From a virus, in IMG/VR virus record IMGVR_UViG_3300003316_000080, positions 1 through 64,000 of that record: a DNA stretch of 64,000 nucleotides. One strand, given 5' to 3'. Positions 1 to 33,111 of this stretch are shown here, one piece after another; within the stretch, counting starts at the first letter, position 1; the number at the start of each line of letters is the position of its first letter. A model generated the notes under the pieces. That model was given only the letters and a program-made list of their open reading frames with translations. It ran no database searches and was not told where the DNA came from. The translations under genes and the position numbers were made by a program.

Positions 1-127
1 AGCCGGAGCCGTCGCCGTCGCCGTAGCCGGAGCCGTAGCCGGAGCCGTAGCCGTCGCCGTCGCCGTCGCCGTAGCCGGAGCCGGAGCCGGAGCCGTAGCC
101 GGAGCGGAAGACCTTACTTGCAGGCAT
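1..127 (-). CDS. Gly/Tyr/Ser/Asp-rich low-complexity repeat protein, N-terminal part only (continues past left edge)
   Basis: minus-strand ATG at 125-127 with AAGGAG 7 nt upstream; reads MPASKVFRSGYGSGSGSGYGDGDGDGYGSGYGSG...; no stop before coordinate 1. Confidence 0.5.
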   Translation of the reverse strand, partial: MPASKVFRSGYGSGSGSGYGDGDGDGYGSGYGSGYGDGDGSG

Positions 128-413
128 CGATTTGCTCCTTCACGCCTTCGGCGGTCGGGATCAGCTCGCAGACGCCGGTCAAGTACAGCTCAGGATTCAT
201 GACATCGACCTTGCTGGCCTTGGCGTTGATGCCGTGCTGTGCCAGGCCAGACAGCGCGACACCATCCGCAGCGCGCCACGACCACAGACGGCGCGAGTTC
301 TTCAGTACGACGTTTTCGCCGTCGACAGCGACCACCTCGCCGGCGTGGACGCCTGCGGAGTAGCAACGCGCGATGACATAGCGGCCGATGAGAGATTGGG
401 CAATTTGGCTCAT
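114..413 (-). CDS. hypothetical protein (99 aa)
   Basis: ORF track 114..461; internal ATG at 411-413 with AAAGGA SD; protein-like sequence MSQIAQSLIGRYVIARCYSAG... Confidence 0.5.
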   Translation of the reverse strand: MSQIAQSLIGRYVIARCYSAGVHAGEVVAVDGENVVLKNSRRLWSWRAADGVALSGLAQHGINAKASKVDVMNPELYLTGVCELIPTAEGVKEQIDACK

Positions 414-484
414 GTTTTCCTTTCGTTGCGTGTCGTCGTTTGACTCCACTCGCAAGCCCACGAGGGTGGGCTTAGCGGCTGGGG

Positions 485-880
485 TCAGGCGGCCCGCGCT
501 GCCTTGAACTCAGCCCACTGGCGCGCCCCCAAGAGGCGCGCAAACTGGGCTTCCGGGATTTGCGTCGCCTTGGCCATGGCGCGCTGCGCCATCGCGACGA
601 CGGCCATGGTGGATGCCTCTTCCTTGCCGAAGCGCTCCTGGTAGTCGCCGACGATCTCCTGAAGAGCAAACAGCAGGTTCGGGGCGGCGGACATGGCGAG
701 GCCGATGGCCACGTTGTCGTGATCGGGGCCGCAGAAAGGGAGGGATGCGATGCAGCCAATGCCGTCCTCGACAATGACGGAGGGAAGCATGTGGACGAGG
801 CCGGTTGCCTCGTCACGGTGTTCCATGGCCGGCACGAAAGACCATTCGCGGCGCTCGCGGATTGGGGTGAAGCTGCTCAT
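485..880 (-). CDS. hypothetical protein (131 aa)
   Basis: ORF track 485..1120; ATG at 878-880 (MSSFTPIRE...) with GGAG upstream; lies just downstream of leftward promoter. Confidence 0.5.
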   Translation of the reverse strand: MSSFTPIRERREWSFVPAMEHRDEATGLVHMLPSVIVEDGIGCIASLPFCGPDHDNVAIGLAMSAAPNLLFALQEIVGDYQERFGKEEASTMAVVAMAQRAMAKATQIPEAQFARLLGARQWAEFKAARAA

Positions 881-905
881 GTCGTCTGCTCCGTCTGAAG
901 TTGAT

Positions 906-941
906 GGAGAGATTGTATATAAACTTCTTACTGGTCCGCAA
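906..941 (-). promoter_or_regulatory. sigma70-like leftward promoter (TTGCGG-N18-TACAAT) with embedded CCAGTAAGAAGTTT motif
   Basis: -10 TACAAT = revcomp of 912-917, -35 = revcomp of 936-941; same TATATACAATCTC element recurs at 28783 and 62654. Confidence 0.35.
921..934. repeat. CAGTAAA-palindrome motif copy (CCAGTAAGAAGTTT, minus orientation)
   Basis: inside leftward promoter spacer. Confidence 0.5.
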
Positions 942-1132
942 GCACTTTTCGCGGTGTCTTCAGCACGTGGCGCGGTGTGTTGCGTAGCTGATGGCGGGGA
1001 CGCGTCTGTGCGCCACCGAACACAAGAGGCTCTGTACCCGTCTTGCTGGGTGTGTTCACAGCCAGCCCCTTCCCAGGAACCACGCTGTACTTGAACGGCC
1101 ACGGTGTGGCACGTAGCCACACGCCGTTCTTC

Positions 1133-1840
1133 TTAGCCACGACGCCCGCCCAGTTGACGCGCCACCATGACAGCAAGGCCAGAGCGCAGATAGCCGGGGA
1201 ATGCAGCATCGAACAGTGATGCCACATTAGCCTGACACGTCGACAACAGCTTTGCTCCCAGTGGCACTTCCATGCGACGGCTGATGCGCCGCGCATGTGC
1301 AACCACCAGTTCAGCCAACAGGTGATATACGGACACTCGTGTTGTGACTGGTTGCTCCAGCAACTTGCTTTGCTTCATGAAGTCGAGCACTGGAGTGAAG
1401 ACCGCACCAGAGGCCGCAGTACGCTTCATCGTGTGCACCGAGCCACCCGCCCCCACCGAGCCTCCGAGAGTGTCGTGTAGGGCCTTGTGTAGCGCCACAG
1501 CCCACATGTCCGAATCACGAGCCGGTGCAGCTTCGTTGACTTCGAGACTTAGCTGAGCAAGCAGCTGCTTTTTCTGGTCGAGGCTCAGACGATTTATGTT
1601 GGTCGAGTCTTCATCATCTTCAACAACCAAAACATGTCGAGCAGTTTTGTGTTGTGTTGATTTATGTAGACCCTGTCCGGGGTAATCACCACACCCACCC
1701 CCCTCCCCTAAAGGGAGGGGTGGGGTGGTGTGTGTTGTTCCCTGGCGCTTTTTTTGAGAAGTGCCAGACGACACTGAAGCACTCGCCACTGGTGGATAGT
1801 GGCGAACTGGCCTTGTCAGAGAAACCTTGCTACGCGCCAT
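1133..1840 (-). CDS. hypothetical protein; start uncertain
   Basis: ORF track; ATG at 1838-1840 with GAGG upstream, but ORF contains GC-rich palindrome 1687-1734; C-terminal two thirds protein-like. Confidence 0.35.
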   Translation of the reverse strand: MARSKVSLTRPVRHYPPVASASVSSGTSQKKRQGTTHTTPPLPLGEGGGCGDYPGQGLHKSTQHKTARHVLVVEDDEDSTNINRLSLDQKKQLLAQLSLEVNEAAPARDSDMWAVALHKALHDTLGGSVGAGGSVHTMKRTAASGAVFTPVLDFMKQSKLLEQPVTTRVSVYHLLAELVVAHARRISRRMEVPLGAKLLSTCQANVASLFDAAFPGYLRSGLAVMVARQLGGRRG

Positions 1841-1867
1841 AAGTGCCTCAGTATCGATTTGTGGGCG

Positions 1868-2371
1868 TCAGGTGGCCCGGGAGTGCACCTTGCCTTGTTT
1901 CGCGGGCTTGTGCGGCTTCTGTGCGGTTTTGCTCTTGCTGGCGGCAGAGACAGCCTTGCCGCGCGCAGCTTTCGCGTACAGACCTTCTTGCTTGTCTTGC
2001 TGCGGCGCAGACTGTTCACGCTTGGTCGGCGTCTTGATGGGCGGCTTGGGGTCACTGGACTCGCTGCCGTCGTCAGTTGCGCGCACAGCGCCCTTCTTGT
2101 TCTTCACCGGCTTCGTCTTCGCGACGGGCCCGGGTTGCTTGTTGGGCTCAGACGCGGCGGGCGGATTGAACTTCACGCCGTGATCCTTGGCCCACTTGGC
2201 AACTTCGCTCAGCTGGTACACCAGCTTGCCGTCGTCGCCGGTCGTGTAGGGCAGCGGCGCCTTGGTCGGCGTCCCGTTGCGCCAGTTATAGACGGTCATG
2301 TTTGCGACGCCGAACGCCTTCAGGATGTCCTTGTGCGTCAGCGTCTTCACGCCGTTCTTTTGCTTTGCCAT
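1868..2371 (-). CDS. HTH DNA-binding protein with Lys/Pro-rich basic tail
   Basis: ATG at 2369-2371 with AAGGAG 8 nt upstream; N-terminus MAKQKNGVKTLTHKDILKAFGVANMTVYNWRNG looks like a helix-turn-helix; tail KPVKNKKG...KPHKPAKQGK. Confidence 0.55.
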   Translation of the reverse strand: MAKQKNGVKTLTHKDILKAFGVANMTVYNWRNGTPTKAPLPYTTGDDGKLVYQLSEVAKWAKDHGVKFNPPAASEPNKQPGPVAKTKPVKNKKGAVRATDDGSESSDPKPPIKTPTKREQSAPQQDKQEGLYAKAARGKAVSAASKSKTAQKPHKPAKQGKVHSRAT

Positions 2372-2481
2372 GGGGTGCTCCTTCTTCATAGATGAAATGG
2401 CACGAGGATTATATATGAACTCGTTTGCGCTCTGTATATAGGCGCACGGCTACACTGCCGCCTTCCCACAGGAGAACTCAC
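2372..2481. promoter_or_regulatory. divergent intergenic region with AT-rich boxes (ATTATATATGAA, TGTATATAGG)
   Basis: 110-bp gap between leftward gene ending 2371 and rightward gene starting 2482; TATAAT readable on minus strand. Confidence 0.3.
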
Positions 2482-3132
2482 ATGAAGAACGCCAGATACG
2501 AGTTGGCCGGCCTGACGCTGCCTGTTCTGGGCATCGGCCGAGGCCAAGTGCTGCACGTAGGACCCAATGCCGGGTTCATGTGCATCAACCTTTTACTGGG
2601 ATCCTTGCCGAAAGCAGACGGGACCTTGAAGGAGATCACGACGGAAGCAGACCAGGTGTTGCACGAACTGATCGCCGCCTTCAACAAGTACCAGCACATC
2701 AACATCCTGCGTGTCCACTCGTCCGGCGATGCGATCGATCCGCTGCAGTGTGGCACCTTGTACGACCTGCATAAAGCGCTGCTCGCGTGGAGCCGTGAGC
2801 AGGGGCGTTCCTTCCAGATGCAGATCGAGACGAATGGGAAGCACGAGCACCCGAAGTTCCACGGCGCTGTGTCGATGATCCACGCACGGGCTGAGTCCCT
2901 GCTGTTCCTTGTCTTCGTGCACGGAAAGCCAGTGACTCAGATGCAGAACCTGTGCAAGCACTGGGTCTACACGTGTCAGGAACTGCTGGGCGAGCACTGG
3001 TCACATCTGTCACTGCCCTGGAAGACTTCGGCCTATGTCACGTACACACTCGATGACATCGTGTCGGACAAGGCCGCTCTCTTCACTGCCGCGAACAGGG
3101 AGGGCGTTCGTCTCCAGAAGGTGGTGGGCTGA
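2482..3132 (+). CDS. hypothetical protein
   Basis: ATG 2482 with AGGAG upstream; ORF track frame. Confidence 0.5.
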   Translation: MKNARYELAGLTLPVLGIGRGQVLHVGPNAGFMCINLLLGSLPKADGTLKEITTEADQVLHELIAAFNKYQHINILRVHSSGDAIDPLQCGTLYDLHKALLAWSREQGRSFQMQIETNGKHEHPKFHGAVSMIHARAESLLFLVFVHGKPVTQMQNLCKHWVYTCQELLGEHWSHLSLPWKTSAYVTYTLDDIVSDKAALFTAANREGVRLQKVVG

Positions 3133-3134
3133 TC

Positions 3135-3419
3135 ATGACGCTTTCGCTAACAGCAATGTCAGGGTGTGTGCCGCCTTGGGACATCTCCATCGTGGCGGCA
3201 CACCAGATCAGTGTGATTCGCGGCATGACCAAGCCCGGCGTGTGGACTGGTGCACAAATCATCCGTCCCCACCTGTACAGACAGGTGGACACGTGGTTTT
3301 GCCAGGACGGCGTACAACTGGGCATCGGGCGCTCACCACAAGAAGCGTGGGAGGACCTGGATTACCACCGGTTGTTTTCTGGTCGCGATTCTCTCCACCT
3401 TTACTTCTATCAACGCTGA
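3135..3419 (+). CDS. hypothetical protein (94 aa)
   Basis: ORF track; start and stop overlap neighbours (translational coupling). Confidence 0.4.
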   Translation: MTLSLTAMSGCVPPWDISIVAAHQISVIRGMTKPGVWTGAQIIRPHLYRQVDTWFCQDGVQLGIGRSPQEAWEDLDYHRLFSGRDSLHLYFYQR

Positions 3420-4276
3420 TGCAAGGCACTATTCACCTTCCCCGCCCGCGCGTCCTGCTGCTCGCGGACATGAGCTATGCCCTGCACCGCGCTGCAGCAA
3501 TCCACAAAGACCTTCAGTACGAGGGCACGTACACAGGTGGCCTGTTCGGACTCATGGGCACACTCGCTAAGCAGATACGCGAGATCAACGCGACGCACGT
3601 GGTCATGTGCACGGATCAGCCGCCGTATGAGCGCTCGCGCGAGTACCCGCAGTACAAGATGGTTCGCAAGAAGGCGGCCGATCCTGAACTGAAGGAACGC
3701 GTGAGGCTGTCTAAGCCATTGGCTGAGGAGTTCTGCCGGACGGTGGGGATTCCCATCGTGGGTGTGCAGGGCTTTGAAGCTGACGACTGCTCGGGGATGA
3801 TCGTCAAGATGCACCGGGCCCGCTTCGACGAAATTTACCTGGGTGCCAAGGACTCTGATCTGTACCAACTGCTTGTGCACTCGAATGTTCGAGTGATGAA
3901 GGGTTCTGAGCGTGAAGACATCGTCACGCGTGAAAGCCTCGCTGTGGGCAAGTTGGGCATGACGCCTGATGAATACGTGTTGTCGCAATGCCTTCAGGGC
4001 ACGCACAACGACGTGGAAGGCATTGATGGTGTTGGACCGGTGTCGGCCTACAAGGCTGTGAAACAGCCGGGCTACATGGCAGCACTACGCGCCAAGCATG
4101 CTGACCTGATCGACAGGAACTTGGCTCTGTCAAAGCTGCCACACACCAAGATGCCGTATCTGCCACTCCCTGAGCGCGGCCACTTCGATGCACGGGCTCT
4201 GTATAGATTCGCGGGAGCGCTGGGCATCGAGGTCACGATCTCCGTGCTGGACGCGCTCAAGCAGATCTCGAAATAA
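3419..4276 (+). CDS. 5'-3' exonuclease / flap endonuclease (FEN, PIN-like + H3TH)
   Basis: ATG 3419 overlapping upstream stop; motifs GFEADD, IDGVGPVSAYKAV typical of T5/T4 RNase H-type 5' nucleases. Confidence 0.8.
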   Translation: MQGTIHLPRPRVLLLADMSYALHRAAAIHKDLQYEGTYTGGLFGLMGTLAKQIREINATHVVMCTDQPPYERSREYPQYKMVRKKAADPELKERVRLSKPLAEEFCRTVGIPIVGVQGFEADDCSGMIVKMHRARFDEIYLGAKDSDLYQLLVHSNVRVMKGSEREDIVTRESLAVGKLGMTPDEYVLSQCLQGTHNDVEGIDGVGPVSAYKAVKQPGYMAALRAKHADLIDRNLALSKLPHTKMPYLPLPERGHFDARALYRFAGALGIEVTISVLDALKQISK

Positions 4277-11640: not shown

Positions 11641-14274
11641 ATGTCGTTTTTCTTCGCAGAGACAAAGCGCGCCAAGAAGACAGGCGCTCCGTCGAAGAAG
11701 GCCGTGATCCCCATCGCAAGCCTGCAGCGTGCCGGCTGCACTGTATGTCCGCGCAAGGCAGACTGGGACGACGGCATCAAGACGCCACAGATGAAACCGG
11801 CCGGCCATCAGTCGCCGACGGTGTATCTGCTAGGCACGGCCCCGTCTGAGAAGGAAGACCGACTGGACGAGCCCTTTGTGTCCACAGCCTATGAAGAGGT
11901 GCTGTCGAAGTTGCCGGCGTCTCTGAGGCGGTATAGCCGCGTCGGCTATCTGACGCAGTGCAAGGCCGCCAGTAAAAACTTGATGCTGGAGATGTCGCCG
12001 GACCACGCGGAGATCGAGTGCTGCCGTCCTCGCGTGATCGCAGACATCGAAGAGACGAAGCCGATTGTCGTGATCGGCATCGGCGACAAAGCGCTTAATT
12101 GGGCCCTCCCCTTCTCATCGGGCGTCACCTCGATCACGCATCGAGGCACCTTGTTTCCGGTGAAGTTCGGGACGCACACGTGCTGGTTTTACAGCGTCAT
12201 GTTCCCGGCATATGTGCACCGAGAAAAGCGCAAGTATCCGACTGAGTACGAGATCGCGCTGACGCACGACCTACGCAATCTCGCTAAGTTGATCAACAAC
12301 GAAGAGATTGGTGTTCCGAAGATCTACGCAGACAAGTGGGAAGAGGGTATCGAGATCGTGACAGGTCACGATGCCGGAGACTTCCAGCGTGTGGAGCGCG
12401 CACTTGCAGACATGGCAGCGCTGCCCGATGTCGCACTCGACATCGAAACCAATGGCCTGCGGCCCTGGCACTTGAACAAGCCCAGGTTGTGGACTGCCGC
12501 AGTAGGCACATTCGAGCGTGTGATCGCCTTCCCGATTGATCATCCTGACGGCTGGGGCGCTGACGCGCGCATCCGCAAGATGCACGGTCTGTTCGCTGAG
12601 TGGCTGTGGCAATCGCGCCGGAAGTGGGCACATAACCTTGCAATGGAACTGGAGTGGTTTAACTGGTTCTACAGTCCGCACGCGATCATGGGCAATGAGT
12701 GGGGCGACACGATGGCCCTTGCCCATGTACTCGACGAGCGCAAGGGCACGAAGTCATTGGAGGTGCAGACGATCATTGGCGCCGGCTTCAACCTGAAGTC
12801 CATGAGTCCAGTTGATCCGTCGTTGCCTGACTGGATCAGTAAGTACCCGATTAAGACGGTGCTGAAGTACAACGGTGGAGACTCGAAATGGACGGACTTC
12901 CGTCGCCGCCAGCTGCAGCCGATCGTGGAGGCCGACGAAAAGCTCCATGACGTCTATCAGCACAAGATTCGAATGGCGCCGGCTTTGATCCTCACAGAGG
13001 CCAAGGGCCTACCGGTGTCTGTGCCGCGTGCTGAGAAGATGAATCGCGCACTGACGGAGCAACTGCACAAGATTGAAGACAAGCTGCGGGCTGATGTGGC
13101 TGTGCGCCGCCATACAACGCAGTTCGGCCAGTTCAGCCCGACGAACTCCGATCATGTGCTCGCGCTGATGGAAAAGACCCTCAAGCGCGATGAGATCTAC
13201 ATCATTGAGAAAGACGGGTCTGAGTCGAAGTCAGTCGCTGAAGAAGTGCTGGCGCTGATGCCTGAAGATGAGGTGCCATCAGCGAAGTTGATCCTGGAGC
13301 ACCGGGGCATCTCCAAGCTGAAGTCGACGTATCTGGAGCCAGTGATCAAGGGCACGATGATCAGCGTCGATGGCTATGTGCACTCGAAGTACAGCAGTCT
13401 GTTCGCCGCGACCCACCGCCTGAACTCTGAAGATCCCAACGCGCAGAACTGGCCTAAGCGCAAGCACAAGGAAGTTCGCTCGATCTTCTACGCGGAAGAT
13501 GATGAAGAGATTCTGGCGTGCGACTACGGCCAGATCGAGTTCCGCGTCGTGGGCATGTGCTCGGAGGACGACAACCTGTGCCGGGCCGTGTGGACCGGGT
13601 ACGACGTGCACTTGCACTGGGCAGAGCGGATCGTCGCCCTGTATCCCAAGATCAAGGACTGGATCAGATCAGAGTTCGAGGTGGACTGGGATGAGAAGGG
13701 CATCAAGACGCTGCGCCAGGAGGCCAAGAACAAGTGGGTGTTTCCGCAGTTCTTCGGTGCCTCGATCAAGTCGTGTGCAGCCTCTCTGCACTTGCCTGAA
13801 GAGGTCGCGCAGGATCTGGCTGATGAACTATGGGATGAGTTCCGAGGCGTCAAGCGCTGGCAAGACAAGTTGATGGAGTCGTTTGCGCGCAAGCTCTACG
13901 TGGAGACGCTGGACGGTGCGCGCCGTCGTGGGCCCATGACCAAAAACGAGATCATCAACATGCCGATCCAGGGCACAGCGGCCCGCATCGTGCAGACCGC
14001 GCATGCAGCTTTGGCTGAACGCGGCTTCATCATGGATCGCGGCGTGTATATCCCATCGCTGAACGTACATGATGACCTCTCAACCTGGAGCAAGAAGGCA
14101 GAGCGGGAGGCCAACGTGAAGATCATCGTCGAAGAGATGTGCAAGCACCGATTTGACTGGATCAACGTGCCGCTGCTGGTGGAAGTGTCGGCCGGGCCTG
14201 ACTGGTCCGACCTGACCGAGATCGGCAAGTACAGCAGCCATGAGCTGTTCAACATCAGGAACCCTTACCAATGA
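11641..14274 (+). CDS. polA: family-A DNA polymerase with N-terminal UDG-like (family 4) domain and 3'-5' exonuclease domain
   Basis: Exo I LDIETNGL; motif A DYGQIEFRV; motif C VHDDL; N-terminus YLLGTAPSEKEDRLDEPFV with Cys cluster resembles Fe-S UDG. Confidence 0.85.
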   Translation: MSFFFAETKRAKKTGAPSKKAVIPIASLQRAGCTVCPRKADWDDGIKTPQMKPAGHQSPTVYLLGTAPSEKEDRLDEPFVSTAYEEVLSKLPASLRRYSRVGYLTQCKAASKNLMLEMSPDHAEIECCRPRVIADIEETKPIVVIGIGDKALNWALPFSSGVTSITHRGTLFPVKFGTHTCWFYSVMFPAYVHREKRKYPTEYEIALTHDLRNLAKLINNEEIGVPKIYADKWEEGIEIVTGHDAGDFQRVERALADMAALPDVALDIETNGLRPWHLNKPRLWTAAVGTFERVIAFPIDHPDGWGADARIRKMHGLFAEWLWQSRRKWAHNLAMELEWFNWFYSPHAIMGNEWGDTMALAHVLDERKGTKSLEVQTIIGAGFNLKSMSPVDPSLPDWISKYPIKTVLKYNGGDSKWTDFRRRQLQPIVEADEKLHDVYQHKIRMAPALILTEAKGLPVSVPRAEKMNRALTEQLHKIEDKLRADVAVRRHTTQFGQFSPTNSDHVLALMEKTLKRDEIYIIEKDGSESKSVAEEVLALMPEDEVPSAKLILEHRGISKLKSTYLEPVIKGTMISVDGYVHSKYSSLFAATHRLNSEDPNAQNWPKRKHKEVRSIFYAEDDEEILACDYGQIEFRVVGMCSEDDNLCRAVWTGYDVHLHWAERIVALYPKIKDWIRSEFEVDWDEKGIKTLRQEAKNKWVFPQFFGASIKSCAASLHLPEEVAQDLADELWDEFRGVKRWQDKLMESFARKLYVETLDGARRRGPMTKNEIINMPIQGTAARIVQTAHAALAERGFIMDRGVYIPSLNVHDDLSTWSKKAEREANVKIIVEEMCKHRFDWINVPLLVEVSAGPDWSDLTEIGKYSSHELFNIRNPYQ

Positions 14275-24133: not shown

Positions 24134-24363
24134 AGATCACTGACGTGTCCAACAAGAAGACAGTGGTGTGTGGCTTCACATGCTGGCATTGCCGCCGCGT
24201 GGTGTTATCTGGTGGCGCCGCTGAAGTCGTCGAGATCTCGATCAAGTTGCGGCCGGGCGCTGACAGACGTGAGCGTGCAAACCGCCTGAGAATGGCCCGT
24301 GCTGAACTGCGCCATGCCCTTGCTATATTCCGCGCCAACAAAGAACTTGAGGACCTCGCATGA
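24130..24363 (+). CDS. hypothetical small Cys-containing protein
   Basis: GTG start overlapping upstream stop; VVCGFTCWHC. Confidence 0.35.
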   Translation: MKITDVSNKKTVVCGFTCWHCRRVVLSGGAAEVVEISIKLRPGADRRERANRLRMARAELRHALAIFRANKELEDLA

Positions 24364-26852
24364 GTGTGCGTTGTGTTGACTGCCTTGTGGGCCTGCGCCA
24401 GCTTCCAGATGCATCCGTTGATGCCATCGTCACGGATCCGCCCTACGGCCTGAGCGAGCAGAAGCCAGCGGAACTCGCTGCTTGCATCGCTGCATGGCTG
24501 GCCGGCGAGGTCTACCAGCCGAAGGGCAAGGGCTTCATGGGCAAGTCCTGGGACGCCTGGGTGCCTGGGCCCGAAGTCTGGCGCGAGTGCTTCCGCGTTC
24601 TCAAGCCGGGCGGACACATCCTGGCCTTCGCCGGCACGCGCACGCAGCACTTGATGGCGCTGTCGATGGCCCTGGCTGGATTCGAAATCAGGGACATGAT
24701 CGCCTGGGTGTATGGCTCCGGGTTTCCGAAGTCGCTGGACGTGTCGAAGGCGGTCGACAAGGCAGGCGGAGCCTCGCCCGTCGAGCAGGCTGAACTGCTG
24801 CGCCGCAAGCGCGTGGCGGCCGGCCTGACGCGAGAGCAGGTCGCGGAACACTGCGGGTGCACTCCATCGAGCGTTCGAGACTGGGAAGAAGGCCGAGCGC
24901 GCGCCGTCGGTGCCGCCGTTGAGTTCATCGTCCCGAGCGACGAGTACCGCACCAAGCTGGCCGACTTGCTCGGTTACAGCGTGGACGAGCGCAAGCTGAT
25001 TGGAACCTCGGCTGACCGGCGCGGCGATGGCACCGTCTACGGGGTGGGCCACAGCGGAGAGTTGCGCGCTGGCGGCAACACCGACGCTGCCCGCCAGTGG
25101 GAAGGCTGGGGCACCGCCCTGAAGCCGGCCCTTGAAACGGTTACTTTCGCTTCAAAGCCGTATACCGAAGAGCAGGAACGGAGTATAATTCAATCGAACC
25201 TAATTCGATTGGAGGCCCGTTTATGGTTGCTGTCGTCTGCGAGTGCTGCGGAAAAGAGTTCAACGTCAAGCCAAAGCGAGTACGGCGCGGCGTGCGCTAT
25301 TGCTCAATGGAGTGCCGACGAAATCACCAGTACACGGGCCGCTTTGTGCGGTCAGATGGATACGTCGCTGTTCGAGTGGGCAGCGACTACCAGCTTGAGC
25401 ATCGTGTCGTCATGGAGGCGCACATTGGTCGAAAGCTGGAGCGATGGGAGCACGTCCACCACCGAAACGAAGTCAAACACGACAACCGACTCGAGAACCT
25501 TGAAATTCTCACTGTCGCAGATCACGCCGAGCACCATCATCAAGGCCTGCAGCCTTCCCGGTGGGTTCAATGCGAATGCCTCCACTGCGGAAAGCCACTT
25601 CAACGCCTCGCTGTTGTTGTTGCAAAGCATCCGCACACTTTCTGCGACCGAGCCTGCTATATCGCAGGCGCAGCACGAACACCTGGGCGCGGGCGTAAAG
25701 CCGAACCTTGATCCATGCATCATGGCGCGCAAGCCGCTGGTCGGAACGGTCGCGGCCAACGTTCTGGAGCACGGGACGGGGGCGCTGAATATCGACGGGT
25801 GCCGCGTGGGCGATGAGGAGCGGGTGAACGGCGCCGGATCTGTGACCTCGCTTCAGCGTCAATCACGGGTCGCGGCGGGATACCGCGATGATGCTGGCGT
25901 TGGCCCAGGCTCTGACGCGAAGACCGTTGTTGGCCGTTGGCCCGCCAACCTGATCCACGACGGCAGCGACGAGGTGCTGGCGGCGTTCCCGAACGCGCCT
26001 GGTCAACTCGCGACGGCGAGCACCAGCGACACGCAGCGCTCCGGACAGAACACCTACGGTGCGATGACCCGTGGCAGCACGGGACAAGAACCGCGCGACG
26101 AGCTCGACAAGAGCGCCGCCCGATTTTTCAAGGAGTGTGCATGGGACGAACCTCGATCTGTTGCGAGCACTGCCGCGCAGCCTTTGTGCCTGCAAAACCA
26201 AGTCGCCGATTCTGTTCAGAGCGCTGCAGCAACTTGGGCCAGCCTCGCGGGAATACTCTCAAACGATTCGAAGGAACGTTCTATGAACGTAACTCCGATC
26301 GAGTCAAGAGCGATCGCAGAAACCGTTATCACTGCGACGACGAGTATCGCAAGCGGGTTCTCGCTCGAGTCGCAGCACGAAAGGCTCACCCCGTGCCGCA
26401 GCCTTGTGAAGACTGTGGTGCGCCGAACGCCGATCGGCATCACGACGATTACGACAAGCCTCTCTCGATCCGATGGAAGTGCCGGAGCTGCCACGTTCAC
26501 CATCACGCCGACGAGCTTGGATCGTGGGGATCTGGGCTCGCGGTTTGAGTACTGCGCCAAGGCTAGCAAGAAGGATCGCGGCGAGGGTAACAACCACCCT
26601 ACTGTCAAGCCGACCGCGCTGATGCGGTATCTCGTCCGCCTTGTTACCCCTCCGGGTGGCACTGTACTTGATCCTTACACGGGCTCTGGTTCAACAGGAG
26701 TGGCCGCGCAAGCGGAAGGCTTCAAGTTCATCGGATTTGAGAATGACCCTGCTTCTTGTGCGATTGCAAACAGGCGAATGGGACTCACGGGCCTGCTTGC
26801 TGTGAACAAAGAGCGCCGCCAGCTGCGTCTTCGCAAGCAGTTGATTGAGTGA
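24360..26852 (+). CDS. N6-adenine/N4-cytosine DNA methyltransferase (DPPY...FxGxG order), interrupted by two HNH cassettes; 830-aa open frame
   Basis: N-terminal AIVTDPPYG, VLKPGG; C-terminal HPTVKPTALMRYLVRLVTPPGGTVLDPYTGSGSTG; intervening frame is S/T-rich. Confidence 0.65.
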   Translation: MSVRCVDCLVGLRQLPDASVDAIVTDPPYGLSEQKPAELAACIAAWLAGEVYQPKGKGFMGKSWDAWVPGPEVWRECFRVLKPGGHILAFAGTRTQHLMALSMALAGFEIRDMIAWVYGSGFPKSLDVSKAVDKAGGASPVEQAELLRRKRVAAGLTREQVAEHCGCTPSSVRDWEEGRARAVGAAVEFIVPSDEYRTKLADLLGYSVDERKLIGTSADRRGDGTVYGVGHSGELRAGGNTDAARQWEGWGTALKPALETVTFASKPYTEEQERSIIQSNLIRLEARLWLLSSASAAEKSSTSSQSEYGAACAIAQWSADEITSTRAALCGQMDTSLFEWAATTSLSIVSSWRRTLVESWSDGSTSTTETKSNTTTDSRTLKFSLSQITPSTIIKACSLPGGFNANASTAESHFNASLLLLQSIRTLSATEPAISQAQHEHLGAGVKPNLDPCIMARKPLVGTVAANVLEHGTGALNIDGCRVGDEERVNGAGSVTSLQRQSRVAAGYRDDAGVGPGSDAKTVVGRWPANLIHDGSDEVLAAFPNAPGQLATASTSDTQRSGQNTYGAMTRGSTGQEPRDELDKSAARFFKECAWDEPRSVASTAAQPLCLQNQVADSVQSAAATWASLAGILSNDSKERSMNVTPIESRAIAETVITATTSIASGFSLESQHERLTPCRSLVKTVVRRTPIGITTITTSLSRSDGSAGAATFTITPTSLDRGDLGSRFEYCAKASKKDRGEGNNHPTVKPTALMRYLVRLVTPPGGTVLDPYTGSGSTGVAAQAEGFKFIGFENDPASCAIANRRMGLTGLLAVNKERRQLRLRKQLIE
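25137..25712 (+). mobile_element. 576-bp HNH endonuclease cassette inserted in MTase, flanked by ~42-bp imperfect direct repeats
   Basis: flanks 25119-25160 and 25695-25736 (AAGCCGGCCCTTGAA vs AAGCCGAACCTTGAT); AT-rich leader with TATAAT 25184-25189 and hairpin 25191-25211. Confidence 0.6.
25223..25711 (+). CDS. HNH homing endonuclease (HNH_3-like)
   Basis: ATG 25223 with GGAGG SD; DGYVAVRVG...YQLEHRVVMEAH...HHRNEVKHDNRLENLEILT; different frame from MTase. Confidence 0.8.
   Translation: MVAVVCECCGKEFNVKPKRVRRGVRYCSMECRRNHQYTGRFVRSDGYVAVRVGSDYQLEHRVVMEAHIGRKLERWEHVHHRNEVKHDNRLENLEILTVADHAEHHHQGLQPSRWVQCECLHCGKPLQRLAVVVAKHPHTFCDRACYIAGAARTPGRGRKAEP
26130..26548 (+). mobile_element. second HNH endonuclease cassette inserted in MTase
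   Basis: flanked by degenerate copies of MTase RFF(Y)CAKAS segment (SAARFFKECAW upstream, GSRFEYCAKAS downstream). Confidence 0.5.
26141..26548 (+). CDS. HNH endonuclease (small, zinc-ribbon N-terminus)
   Basis: ATG 26141 with AAGGAG 5 nt upstream; CEDCGAPNADRHHDDYDKPLSIRWKCRSCHVHHH. Confidence 0.7.
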   Translation: MGRTSICCEHCRAAFVPAKPSRRFCSERCSNLGQPRGNTLKRFEGTFYERNSDRVKSDRRNRYHCDDEYRKRVLARVAARKAHPVPQPCEDCGAPNADRHHDDYDKPLSIRWKCRSCHVHHHADELGSWGSGLAV

Positions 26853-30983: not shown

Positions 30984-31403
30984 ATGGACGAAAAACGCAA
31001 ACGTGGTCGGCCGGCTGGAGCAATGAACAAGCTCAGTCAGGAGGCTGTCAACCTCGCAAAGCAGACAGGTAAGTTGCCCCATGAGATCTTGCTAGAGATC
31101 GCACGGGGCAATCCCATTTGTGTGCTGAGTATGGAAGAAGGCGTTCTGAAGCCTGTCTATGTCATGACAGATCCTGCACAGGTGCTTGATGCAGCAAAGG
31201 CAGCAGCACCGTACTTCGCGCCGAAGATTTCTACAGTTGAAGTGATTGCAGGGGTATCTGACCATGAACTTGATCGCATCATTGCGCTCGCTGCCGCCGA
31301 AGCAGGCATTAGCCTTGGCGCTAGCGGAGAAGGCGAAGAGACAGAGGAAGAGGAACCAACTGAGCGAAGCAGCCGAAAGGGCCGTAGACAGCTACGCGAG
31401 TGA
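30984..31403 (+). CDS. putative terminase small subunit
   Basis: position directly upstream of terL; N-terminal basic KRKRGRPAG; 3' end overlaps terL by ~158 nt, so true end uncertain. Confidence 0.4.
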   Translation: MDEKRKRGRPAGAMNKLSQEAVNLAKQTGKLPHEILLEIARGNPICVLSMEEGVLKPVYVMTDPAQVLDAAKAAAPYFAPKISTVEVIAGVSDHELDRIIALAAAEAGISLGASGEGEETEEEEPTERSSRKGRRQLRE

Positions 31404-33111
31404 AGCAGAGGGGCCTCCTGTCCCTCTGCAGGTTTCCTCAGTCGTACTAGACGACACGCACGTAATCAGCCAACTGCTTACAACAGGCAAGTTGTGTGCG
31501 GGTCCGTCTGCACAGCACATCCGCTACAAGATCTACTGGGGCGGTCGTGGTGCTGTGAAGTCGTGGGGCATGGCAGAAGCACTAGTACGTCTGGCAGCTG
31601 CCAAGCCTCTACGCATACTGTGCTGCCGTGAGTTTCAGAACTCGATCAAGGACAGTGCACACAAACTGCTGAAAGACACGATCGAGAGACTTGGTCTGTC
31701 TACGTGGTTCACTGTCACTGCCGACAGCATCAAGTCTCGTGTCGGTGCAGAGTTCATGTTCAAAGGCCTGCACAACAACGAGAACGGCATCAGGTCGACT
31801 GAAGGCGTAGATATCTGCTGGGTGGAAGAAGCACACAGCGTTACTGCACTTAGCTGGCAGAGCCTACTGCCCACGATCCGTGGTGACGAGTCAGAGATCT
31901 GGATCTCGTTCAACATGGTCGAAGAGAGTGATGCTACGTACCAGATGTTCGTAGCAAATGAACGCCCTCACTCGATCGTTCACCACATCAATTACGACAG
32001 CAATCCGTTCCTACCGAAAGTGCTCCGTGATGAAATGGAGCACGACAAGAAGACGGACTACGCGCTGTACGAGCACATCTGGCTGGGCAAGCCTCGCAAG
32101 CGTAGTAACGCAATCGTCCTCAACGGCAAGTACCGCATTGAGGAATTCCCAGATGATCTGTACGAACACGCAGATAGGTTGTTCTTCGGTGCTGACTGGG
32201 GCTATGCAGAAGATCCGTCCACGCTGGTGCGTTGCTTCATCCTGAACAACAAGCTGTACATCGAGTACGAGGCATACGGCAAGCACATCGAACTGAACGA
32301 CTACGCTGCGTTCTATGACCAAGTGCCCGGGTCACGTGACTGGCCTATCTATGCCGACAGCGCGTTGCCAGCAACGATCTCGCATGTGCGCGGTCTGGGC
32401 TTTGCGATCGATGCGGCAGAGAAGTGGCCGGGCAGTGTCGAAGACGGCATCAAGCATCTGCGGGGGTACGACGAGATCATCATTCACCCGCGCTGCAAGA
32501 TGGCGGCCGACGAGGCTTACAAGTGGCGGTACAAGGTCGACAAGAAGGTGCTGGATGCCAACATGCAGCCACTCGTACTGCCCACGCTGGTAGACGCACA
32601 CAATCACTGCATTCCGGCTGGCGTGCTTGTGTCTACTGCGTGTGGCGATGTGCCTATTGAGCAAGTACAAGTAGGCGACCTCGTGTGGACGCGTGTTGGT
32701 CTGCGTCCTGTGTTGTGGGCAGGTGCCACAGACACGAACCGTGAAGTGCTGGAGATCACGTTGTCATCTGGTCATGTAGTGCGCTGCACTCCTGACCACG
32801 AAGTCTTCGTGAATGGTGAGTTCATTCGTGCAGACGCTGCTCAGGTGTCTGACAACATGAACACACTCGACAGCACGGCACATGGCAGGCGAATTGGCAC
32901 TGCGTCTGTAGTCTCTATCACTCGCATCGCGGAAAAGGCTGATGTTGTCTATGACGTAACGGTCGATGGACAACACGAGTTCTTCGCGAATGGTGTGCTG
33001 GTTCACAACTGCTGGGACGCGGTCCGGTACGCCCTACATGGCTACATCCCCAGATCGGGTGAGATGGGCGTGTGGAACAGACTAGGCGCCCAAGCTCTGG
33101 GACAATCCTGA
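31246..33111 (+). CDS. terL: terminase large subunit carrying a 134-aa mini-intein
   Basis: Walker A GGRGAVKSWG, Walker B DICWVEEAH; intein between DAHNH and CWDAV; exact start uncertain. Confidence 0.8.
   Translation: MQGYLTMNLIASLRSLPPKQALALALAEKAKRQRKRNQLSEAAERAVDSYASEAEGPPVPLQVSSVVLDDTHVISQLLTTGKLCAGPSAQHIRYKIYWGGRGAVKSWGMAEALVRLAAAKPLRILCCREFQNSIKDSAHKLLKDTIERLGLSTWFTVTADSIKSRVGAEFMFKGLHNNENGIRSTEGVDICWVEEAHSVTALSWQSLLPTIRGDESEIWISFNMVEESDATYQMFVANERPHSIVHHINYDSNPFLPKVLRDEMEHDKKTDYALYEHIWLGKPRKRSNAIVLNGKYRIEEFPDDLYEHADRLFFGADWGYAEDPSTLVRCFILNNKLYIEYEAYGKHIELNDYAAFYDQVPGSRDWPIYADSALPATISHVRGLGFAIDAAEKWPGSVEDGIKHLRGYDEIIIHPRCKMAADEAYKWRYKVDKKVLDANMQPLVLPTLVDAHNHCIPAGVLVSTACGDVPIEQVQVGDLVWTRVGLRPVLWAGATDTNREVLEITLSSGHVVRCTPDHEVFVNGEFIRADAAQVSDNMNTLDSTAHGRRIGTASVVSITRIAEKADVVYDVTVDGQHEFFANGVLVHNCWDAVRYALHGYIPRSGEMGVWNRLGAQALGQS
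32608..33009 (+). mobile_element. mini-intein (Hint domain, no endonuclease domain) within terL
   Basis: starts with Cys (CIPAGVLV), block B TPDH, ends VYDVTVDGQHEFFANGVLVHN followed by +1 Cys; 402 nt in frame. Confidence 0.8.

Follow-up and report, generated by a model that had tools for sequence, protein, structure and literature searches.

The gene considered here lies at the edge of a 64,000-nucleotide (nt) stretch of viral DNA, positions 1 to 64,000 of the IMG/VR record IMGVR_UViG_3300003316_000080, referred to below as the window. On the minus strand, an ATG codon (127-125) opens a reading frame that is preceded, at a distance of 7 nt, by an AAGGAG Shine-Dalgarno (SD) sequence (140-135), read directly from the DNA and located within the coding region of the gene upstream. 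The frame reads MPASKVFRSGYGSGSGSGYGDGDGDGYGSGYGSGYGDGDGSG and remains open to position 1 without a stop codon, its 3' end lying beyond the window. The 42 sense codons of this 5' part (1..127) specify a leader of 9 residues, MPASKVFRS, followed by 33 residues of G-[YSD]. At the DNA level, the repeat is a hexanucleotide array, (GGC-KMC)n, reported by Tandem Repeats Finder at 1..105 of the minus strand with a period of 6 and 17.5 units; GGC encodes Gly, and TAC, TCC and GAC encode Tyr, Ser and Asp. Three consecutive GGCKMC units are matched 14 times, always on the minus strand within 5-100, as against 0 times in 100 shuffles, and no match was obtained elsewhere in the 64-kb window. The first-pass annotation of this DNA had described a minus-strand ATG with a strong AAGGAG SD and a low-complexity frame rich in Gly, Tyr, Ser and Asp that runs off the window edge. 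The strand read and the translation confirm this layout, and the coding nature of the frame is borne out by a coding-frame test on related arrays.

Directly upstream on the same strand, a gene of 99 amino acids (aa) belonging to the Pfam family DUF6948 (PF22253, E 1e-25) extends from 413 to 114, and its product is predicted to adopt a Sm/LSm fold. Its TAA stop codon (116-114) lies downstream of the ATG of the repeat gene. The two genes overlap in this way by 14 nt (114..127), an arrangement that suggests translational coupling.

The window itself begins within the array, and the missing 3' end could not be recovered from other records. An identical DUF6948 protein is recorded on a contig of 67,482 nt, which places ~3.5 kb outside the window. 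The Logan contig SRR1926121_33621, which carries the same phage sequence, ends 38 nt beyond the DUF6948 gene, within the repeat. Scans of IMG/VR and of the JGI metagenome contigs with an exact 43-nt pattern returned no copy completing the open reading frame (ORF), and a search from the opposite end of the window yielded only a 1.2-kb contig. A circular join cannot be deduced either, because the genes at the far end of the window have no homologues downstream of the two-gene cassette in related phages. A homology search with the 42-aa fragment, a short and compositionally biased query, gave 1,817 word-sharing candidates and 0 significant ones.

A family of Gly-X small proteins

The repeat gene is not confined to this phage. 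A strict scan of IMG/VR for eight consecutive GGCKMC units detected at least 120 loci. Among cultured phages, the gene is carried by eight Pectobacterium/Dickeya phages, by Vibrio phage IKEMa6-1 and Chlorobiaceae phage CV-1-33, and by Ralstonia phage NK-7, whose homologue (XCO36015.1, 137 aa) is named 'fibroin heavy chain-like protein' in GenBank. In Iodobacter phage phiPLPE (L084, EU876853), a complete but unannotated (Gly-X)n ORF of 78 aa is found at ~1174-1410 between gp84 and gp83; gp84 is a DUF6948 homologue, and the repeat ORF is followed by a terminator-like hairpin and a T-run. The view that such proteins are unusual in phages does not survive these counts. The cassette occurs in many unrelated tailed phages, from soil and freshwater metagenomes and the human gut to the cultured Ralstonia, Pectobacterium, Iodobacter, Vibrio and Chlorobiaceae phages, and since cultured phages carry it, the proposals made below are directly testable.

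The complete relatives indicate what the window fragment would look like in full. With a length of 43-137 aa (median 81), their ORFs begin with a leader of ~9 residues, of consensus M-x-x-x-K-x-F/W-x-[S/D], to which the window leader conforms, and continue with the repeat up to a stop codon. In the closest of them, a polished assembly whose DUF6948 is 80% identical, the ORF of 89 aa reads MPSNKQFRSGSGYGDGDG...GSGSGY* and displays the same ATG...TAA overlap geometry as the window. Because complete relatives stop directly after the repeat, most of these proteins possess no further domain, and the window ORF, judged by comparison with them, is not the start of a large repeat protein.

A set of 137 non-identical arrays served to assess the coding frame. 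Past the last repeat, the first stop codon is reached after a median of 1 codon when the Gly-X frame is read (within 3 codons in 73% of the arrays) and after medians of 20 and 17 codons when the two remaining forward frames are read; an ATG is present in 126 of the 137 arrays at a median of 9 codons upstream. The codon set is uniform within an array and different between arrays: GGC with TAC/TCC/GAC as in the window, GGC with TAT/TCT/GAT, GGT with TAC/TCC/GAC, or mixed sets. Since these synonymous sets change between arrays while the amino acids are kept, selection operates at the protein level. Together, the placement of stop and start codons and the synonymous codon sets argue against coding on the opposite strand, and on this comparative evidence the repeat ORF is a real, translated small-protein gene.

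Composition is tightly defined. Over the arrays, Gly accounts for 50% of residues, Ser for 20%, Tyr for 14% and Asp for 12%, with only 0.2% Lys+Arg and 0.3% Ala. In the 119 non-identical stand-alone arrays, which are the majority form and the class of the window, Ser (34%), Tyr (32%) and Asp (26%) dominate the X positions, the Gly-X alternation is unbroken over 98% of the region, and the median number of [G/S]Y[G/S] motifs is 11 per protein. The scarcity of Ala is not a trivial consequence of the codon pattern: free combination of the two variable bases would be expected to give ~11% Ala at X codons, by calculation, and 0.7% is found, a ~16-fold under-representation, even though the Ala codon GCC is a single step from both TCC and GAC. 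The median net charge of the protein is -8, and AlphaFold2 (AF2) pLDDT values are below 50 across the array in a homologue with additional folded domains. The product is thus described as a small, acidic protein that is predicted to be intrinsically disordered. It has no family in PHROGs, NCBIfam or PADLOC, and its Pfam matches are limited to sub-threshold, spurious low-complexity ones (TrAA12, Serglycin).

Besides the stand-alone form, the second gene exists in other versions, in which the array follows an 'LTLDG' leader or a ~60-aa N-terminal domain, or precedes either a conserved 155-aa C-terminal domain (in human-gut phages) or a different domain of ~115 aa. At one further locus (L039, ~450-671), the array reads APAPAPAP...ATATAT before switching to GSGSGYGDG, an apparent frameshift within the repeat due to a sequencing error or to a pseudogene.

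In contrast to its composition, the order and length of the array are hypervariable. The Pectobacterium phages Abuela (L215) and Amona (L216) are identical over 1020/1020 nt upstream and 400/400 nt downstream, and their arrays (locus positions 990-1211) differ at ~13 positions and by an 18-nt indel, with all differences located at the two variable bases of X codons; the arrays of Ymer and Abuela are identical. Either a very high local rate of mutation or recombination or a mis-assembled repeat would produce the Abuela/Amona contrast. Across eight related Pectobacterium/Dickeya isolates, the protein ranges from 53 to 89 aa, always in frame. The same situation is observed in metagenomes, where six proteins share one leader and a C-terminal domain of 155 aa that is 100% identical among them, yet contain unrelated arrays of 53-77 residues, and where a seventh, with a 99% identical domain, contains an array of just 19 residues. 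From these comparisons, the array evolves fast as 6-nt units are gained, lost and reshuffled, its composition and Gly alternation being maintained. Slippage and gene conversion among the 6-nt units account for this variation. A diversity-generating retroelement was considered as its source and set aside, as these unit-level processes cover changes confined to the two variable bases.

The array also breaks short-read assemblies, since many IMG/VR and Logan contigs end in it; those ending inside or just before it include loci L001, L004-L007, L025, L034, L041, L052, L069-L073 and L076, among others. At the RNA level, none of 200 dinucleotide-preserving shuffles folds as poorly as the repeat transcript (window 1-145, minus strand; z = +3.79). 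As Ala is hardly ever encoded, GGC does not encounter GCC, its complement, and avoidance of this pairing is a possible nucleic-acid-level reason for the scarcity of Ala; weak folding may have been selected or may be a by-product. A scan of window positions 1-3000 against Rfam returned only sub-threshold noise.

Pairing with a Sm-like gene

The most informative feature of the locus, absent from the first-pass annotation, is the near-obligate presence of a Sm-like partner gene. When the DUF6948 protein was used as an anchor to collect 80 related IMG/VR loci, a (Gly-X)n ORF was found directly downstream in 74 of them, and the remaining 6 lie on contigs with less than 60 nt beyond DUF6948. The reverse search used an iterated profile seeded on DUF6948 to call upstream ORFs. 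Among the matches listed, 83 of the 92 arrays with sufficient upstream DNA are immediately preceded by a Sm-like ORF, and most of the 9 exceptions are plain Gly-Ser linkers in unrelated proteins. One divergent upstream subtype was assigned to DUF6948 by Pfam (E 1e-20), and another was borderline. When the loci are pooled, again among the matches listed, the Sm-like gene is directly upstream of 146 of 153 non-identical arrays.

The overlap of the two genes is equally general. In 145 array loci, the possible start codon closest to the stop of the upstream gene was considered; it overlaps the end of the Sm-like gene in 90% of cases (median -11 nt). Because the genes overlap, they are probably translated together. 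A programmed frameshift fusing DUF6948 to the repeat was considered and rejected: overlaps of -4/-1/-13 nt and of -17/-14/-11/-8 nt place the repeat in either relative frame, and a conserved frameshift fusion is excluded by the occurrence of both, which fits translational coupling.

Clustering of the ORFs located up- and downstream of the cassette revealed no conserved third gene; only DUF6948 and the repeat gene are kept. The typical neighbours encode SNF2 and other helicases, Sak4-like ATPases, Erf/Bet/RecE recombination proteins, the single-stranded DNA-binding protein SSB and methylases. As these are replication and recombination genes, the cassette belongs to an early region and is not a virion component, which makes the earlier suggestion of a structural role unlikely, the gene being located away from the virion genes. 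The condensate-forming role raised with it in the first-pass annotation may apply. Leaders and partners also correspond: by a crude classification, K-x-F/W leaders accompany the RCYxAGVHAG subfamily of Sm-like proteins and LTLD leaders the DRGFV subfamily, with 0 crossovers. This match would be compatible with a contact between the leader and the Sm-like protein.

The assignment of DUF6948 to the Sm/LSm fold relies on structure prediction, which places five strongly bent beta-strands after an N-terminal helix. When PDB sequences were searched with a profile, neither a Sm protein nor any other match of solved structure was found, and no named family other than DUF6948 itself was obtained from Pfam, PHROGs, NCBIfam or PADLOC, so that the protein does not group with Sm1/Sm2 proteins by sequence. 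By eye, a Sm1-like stretch, D-x-x-N-h-h-L, can be recognized, and the canonical 'RG' of Sm2 reads 'TG'. The invariant residues include R16, C17, H23, R41, W44, W46, K68 and C82-E83. In a profile search of the full library, 1,903 representative clusters (50% identity) were retrieved, all of them short proteins and none a long fusion. In the window (114-461, minus strand) and in its closest relatives, DUF6948 is devoid of the ~25-residue N-terminal segment (MNIxxLTxGxxxEIAALF) that most homologues possess.

Possible roles of the two-gene cassette

In the reading tentatively favored here, and advanced with clearly less than even confidence, the repeat protein is a separate disordered 'tail' that forms a complex with the Sm-like protein and serves as a nucleic-acid mimic or as a Tyr-based scaffold. 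The Sm-like gene comes first in the cassette and the repeat gene second, and their overlap would ensure probable joint translation. The repeat protein, an extended polyanion with ~11 tyrosines and almost no Lys or Arg, would bind the conserved Arg/Trp surface of a presumed Sm-like oligomer. Two modes of action can be envisaged from this point. The protein could mimic a single-stranded nucleic acid and thereby gate the access of ligands to the Sm-like protein, a role played in cis, in Hfq, by the acidic C-terminal tip. It could instead act as a multivalent scaffold whose Tyr 'stickers' would cluster Sm-like proteins and their bound RNA or single-stranded DNA (ssDNA) early in infection.

Known systems offer analogies to this proposal. 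The eukaryotic Sm/LSm proteins have low-complexity tails, such as the RG tails of SmB/D1/D3 and that of LSm4, and [G/S]Y[G/S] domains of the FUS family drive phase separation. The phage cassette resembles them by its predicted Sm fold, its median of 11 [G/S]Y[G/S] motifs and its grammar of Tyr stickers and Gly-Ser spacers. Compared with FUS-like domains, the motifs are likewise multiple and disorder is predicted, but the phage array is strongly acidic and devoid of Gln. It is also strictly periodic over two residues, rich in Asp, free of Gln, Asn and Pro, limited to proteins of 43-137 aa and without homology to these domains. A closer parallel is provided by bacterial Hfq, which likewise associates a Sm-fold core with a Gly-rich, aromatic-containing, acidic and disordered repeat, a segment that regulates nucleic-acid binding by mimicry. 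In Escherichia coli, the Sm ring of Hfq is autoregulated by its acidic disordered C-terminal tip, which acts as a nucleic-acid mimic (PMC5606850), and in Acinetobacter the long tail of Gly/aromatic GGFGGQ repeats is required for Hfq function (PMC11617691). The novelty here would be that a Sm fold and a Gly-rich, disordered, acidic repeat are split into two genes and borne by phages. The pair seems undescribed, and the literature consulted contained nothing relevant on the repeat protein, on DUF6948, on their pairing or on phage Sm-like or Hfq-like proteins. Were the Sm-like protein to bind RNA, the cassette would represent a widespread phage RNA chaperone or regulator whose disordered partner is, unusually, a separate protein; were the repeat protein a mimic or scaffold, it would be a novel kind of phage effector, with repeat slippage determining its length.

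Several observations weigh against this proposal. The interaction between the two proteins is putative, and RNA binding and ring formation by DUF6948 are properties that we infer from the predicted fold alone, a fold that also occurs, in Sm-like form, in non-RNA proteins (MnxE/F, GerQ, Naa38). The Arg of the Sm2 'RG' motif is Thr in DUF6948, according to the reading by eye. Unlike in Hfq, the acidic character of the C-terminal tip is weak (D+E of 0.32 vs 0.26). The extra N- or C-terminal domains present in some members have no known fold, and the array could be a mere linker in these. Shared ancestry or co-inheritance alone could explain the match between leaders and Sm-like subfamilies, and errors of short-read assembly may add to the variation of the array between records.

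A bolder extension, for which the probability is low, would be a minimal two-component system, encoded by the phage and organizing ribonucleoprotein (RNP). In this scheme, a Sm-like ring with Arg/Trp sites, a Tyr-sticker polymer and RNA or ssDNA would assemble into a condensate or hub, which would organize early phage gene expression or replication or would sequester host RNAs, and the slippage-prone array would let the phage population retune its valency continually. If true, this would constitute a bacterial-virus counterpart of the eukaryotic granules built from Sm/LSm proteins and low-complexity domains, and a previously undescribed class of phage proteins.

Among the alternatives to a tail complexed with the Sm-like protein, the one that best survives, while still rather unlikely, is an anti-defence or host-takeover decoy. 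Comparable in this to Ocr, gp5.9 and Gam, the acidic Tyr/Ser chain would by itself mimic DNA/RNA or offer a decoy substrate, its target in the host being a nuclease, a kinase or a defence protein that binds nucleic acids; the Sm-like protein would be a helper or chaperone only. The cassette is mobile and, in unrelated phages, lies among variable early genes beside Erf/SSB, RecE/Bet, Sak4-like ATPases and SNF2 helicases. The chain carries a strong negative charge without Lys or Arg, and according to standard geometry the X side chains of an extended chain would be ~6.8 A apart, near the spacing of phosphates. The known DNA mimics are however folded proteins, no match was found to the anti-defence families of PADLOC, PHROG or Pfam, and the near-obligate coupling with the Sm-like gene is left unexplained by a decoy.

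The array could also be an inert, flexible spacer or entropic linker, the functional parts being the leader and any attached domain, and the stand-alone form being a leader peptide with a solubilising tail. In one class, the leader helix and the 155-aa domain are identical and the array joining them ranges from 19 to 77 residues; such freedom of length, and an array order free of constraint, are what a linker would display. This explanation is nevertheless unlikely: most of the proteins consist of leader and array alone (119 non-identical arrays), and the tightly held composition, with Tyr at ~30% of X and Ala, Lys and Arg near absent, would be needless in a plain Gly/Ser linker.

Lower still is the probability that the element acts as RNA or DNA, the (GGC-KMC)n transcript being the ligand of the Sm-like protein, or the DNA a site, with translation incidental. 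The position of the repeat directly after a Sm-fold gene on the same transcript would suit this idea, as would the predominance of GGC among Gly codons (87%), which extends even to phages with a GC content of 36-47%, and the weak structure of the repeat RNA (z = +3.8 relative to all 200 shuffles), appropriate for a single-stranded ligand. Against it, whole arrays swap GGC for GGT or NNC for NNT with the amino acids kept, start codon, SD and immediate stop are conserved in the Gly-X frame only, and no Rfam match was found. GGC/GGT, TAC, GAC and TCC/TCT are translationally preferred codons in Proteobacteria, and their use agrees with a highly translated gene.

A modified peptide precursor of the RiPP type (ribosomally synthesized and post-translationally modified peptide, here with Tyr-Gly splicing or cross-linking) or a silk- or amyloid-like material is very improbable: the repeated Tyr-Gly motifs do recall the cores of some radical-SAM-modified peptides, and the Gly-X alternation with Ser and Tyr recalls the GAGAGS/GAGAGY repeats of silk fibroin heavy chain, as the GenBank name of the NK-7 copy reflects, but the arrays are long, hypervariable and highly charged, the leader has just ~9 residues with no conserved modifying enzyme nearby, which leaves the features of a RiPP precursor unrecognized, and the array is not of fibroin type, since Ala, the main beta-sheet former, is near absent (0.3%, replaced by Asp, which occupies about a quarter of X positions) and the gene, predicted to encode a small cytoplasmic early product, lies outside the virion module, so that the likeness to silk is compositional and not homologous.

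The window genome and other observations

The window is the genome of a tailed phage, with genes for PolA, the large terminase, the portal, the major capsid protein and a DUF3383 protein. It is distant from cultured phages: the best match of its portal, in Edwardsiella phage ZHS, is at 54%, and a megablast search of positions 1-4000 against cultured phages gave no match. Upstream of the cassette, on the same minus strand, the segments 485-880 and 1133-2389 contain the genes of three proteins: one of 131 aa with a faint match to Phage_P22_Y8K6, one of 235 aa without any match, and an excisionase-like DNA-binding protein of 167 aa (phrog_66, phrog_4745). From ~2425, the next genes of the window are on the opposite strand.

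Three other genes, all on the plus strand, display unusual domain arrangements. The family-A DNA polymerase of 877 aa (11641-14274) has an N-terminal domain of the uracil-DNA-glycosylase superfamily at residues ~57-202. In a protein of 830 aa (24360-26852), an N6/N4 DNA methylase domain occurs together with helix-turn-helix domains (HTH_31/HTH_3). The large terminase (Terminase_3, 31246-33111) contains an intein/Hint insertion at residues ~455-588, recognized by the Pfam models Intein_splicing, Hint_2 and PT-HINT.
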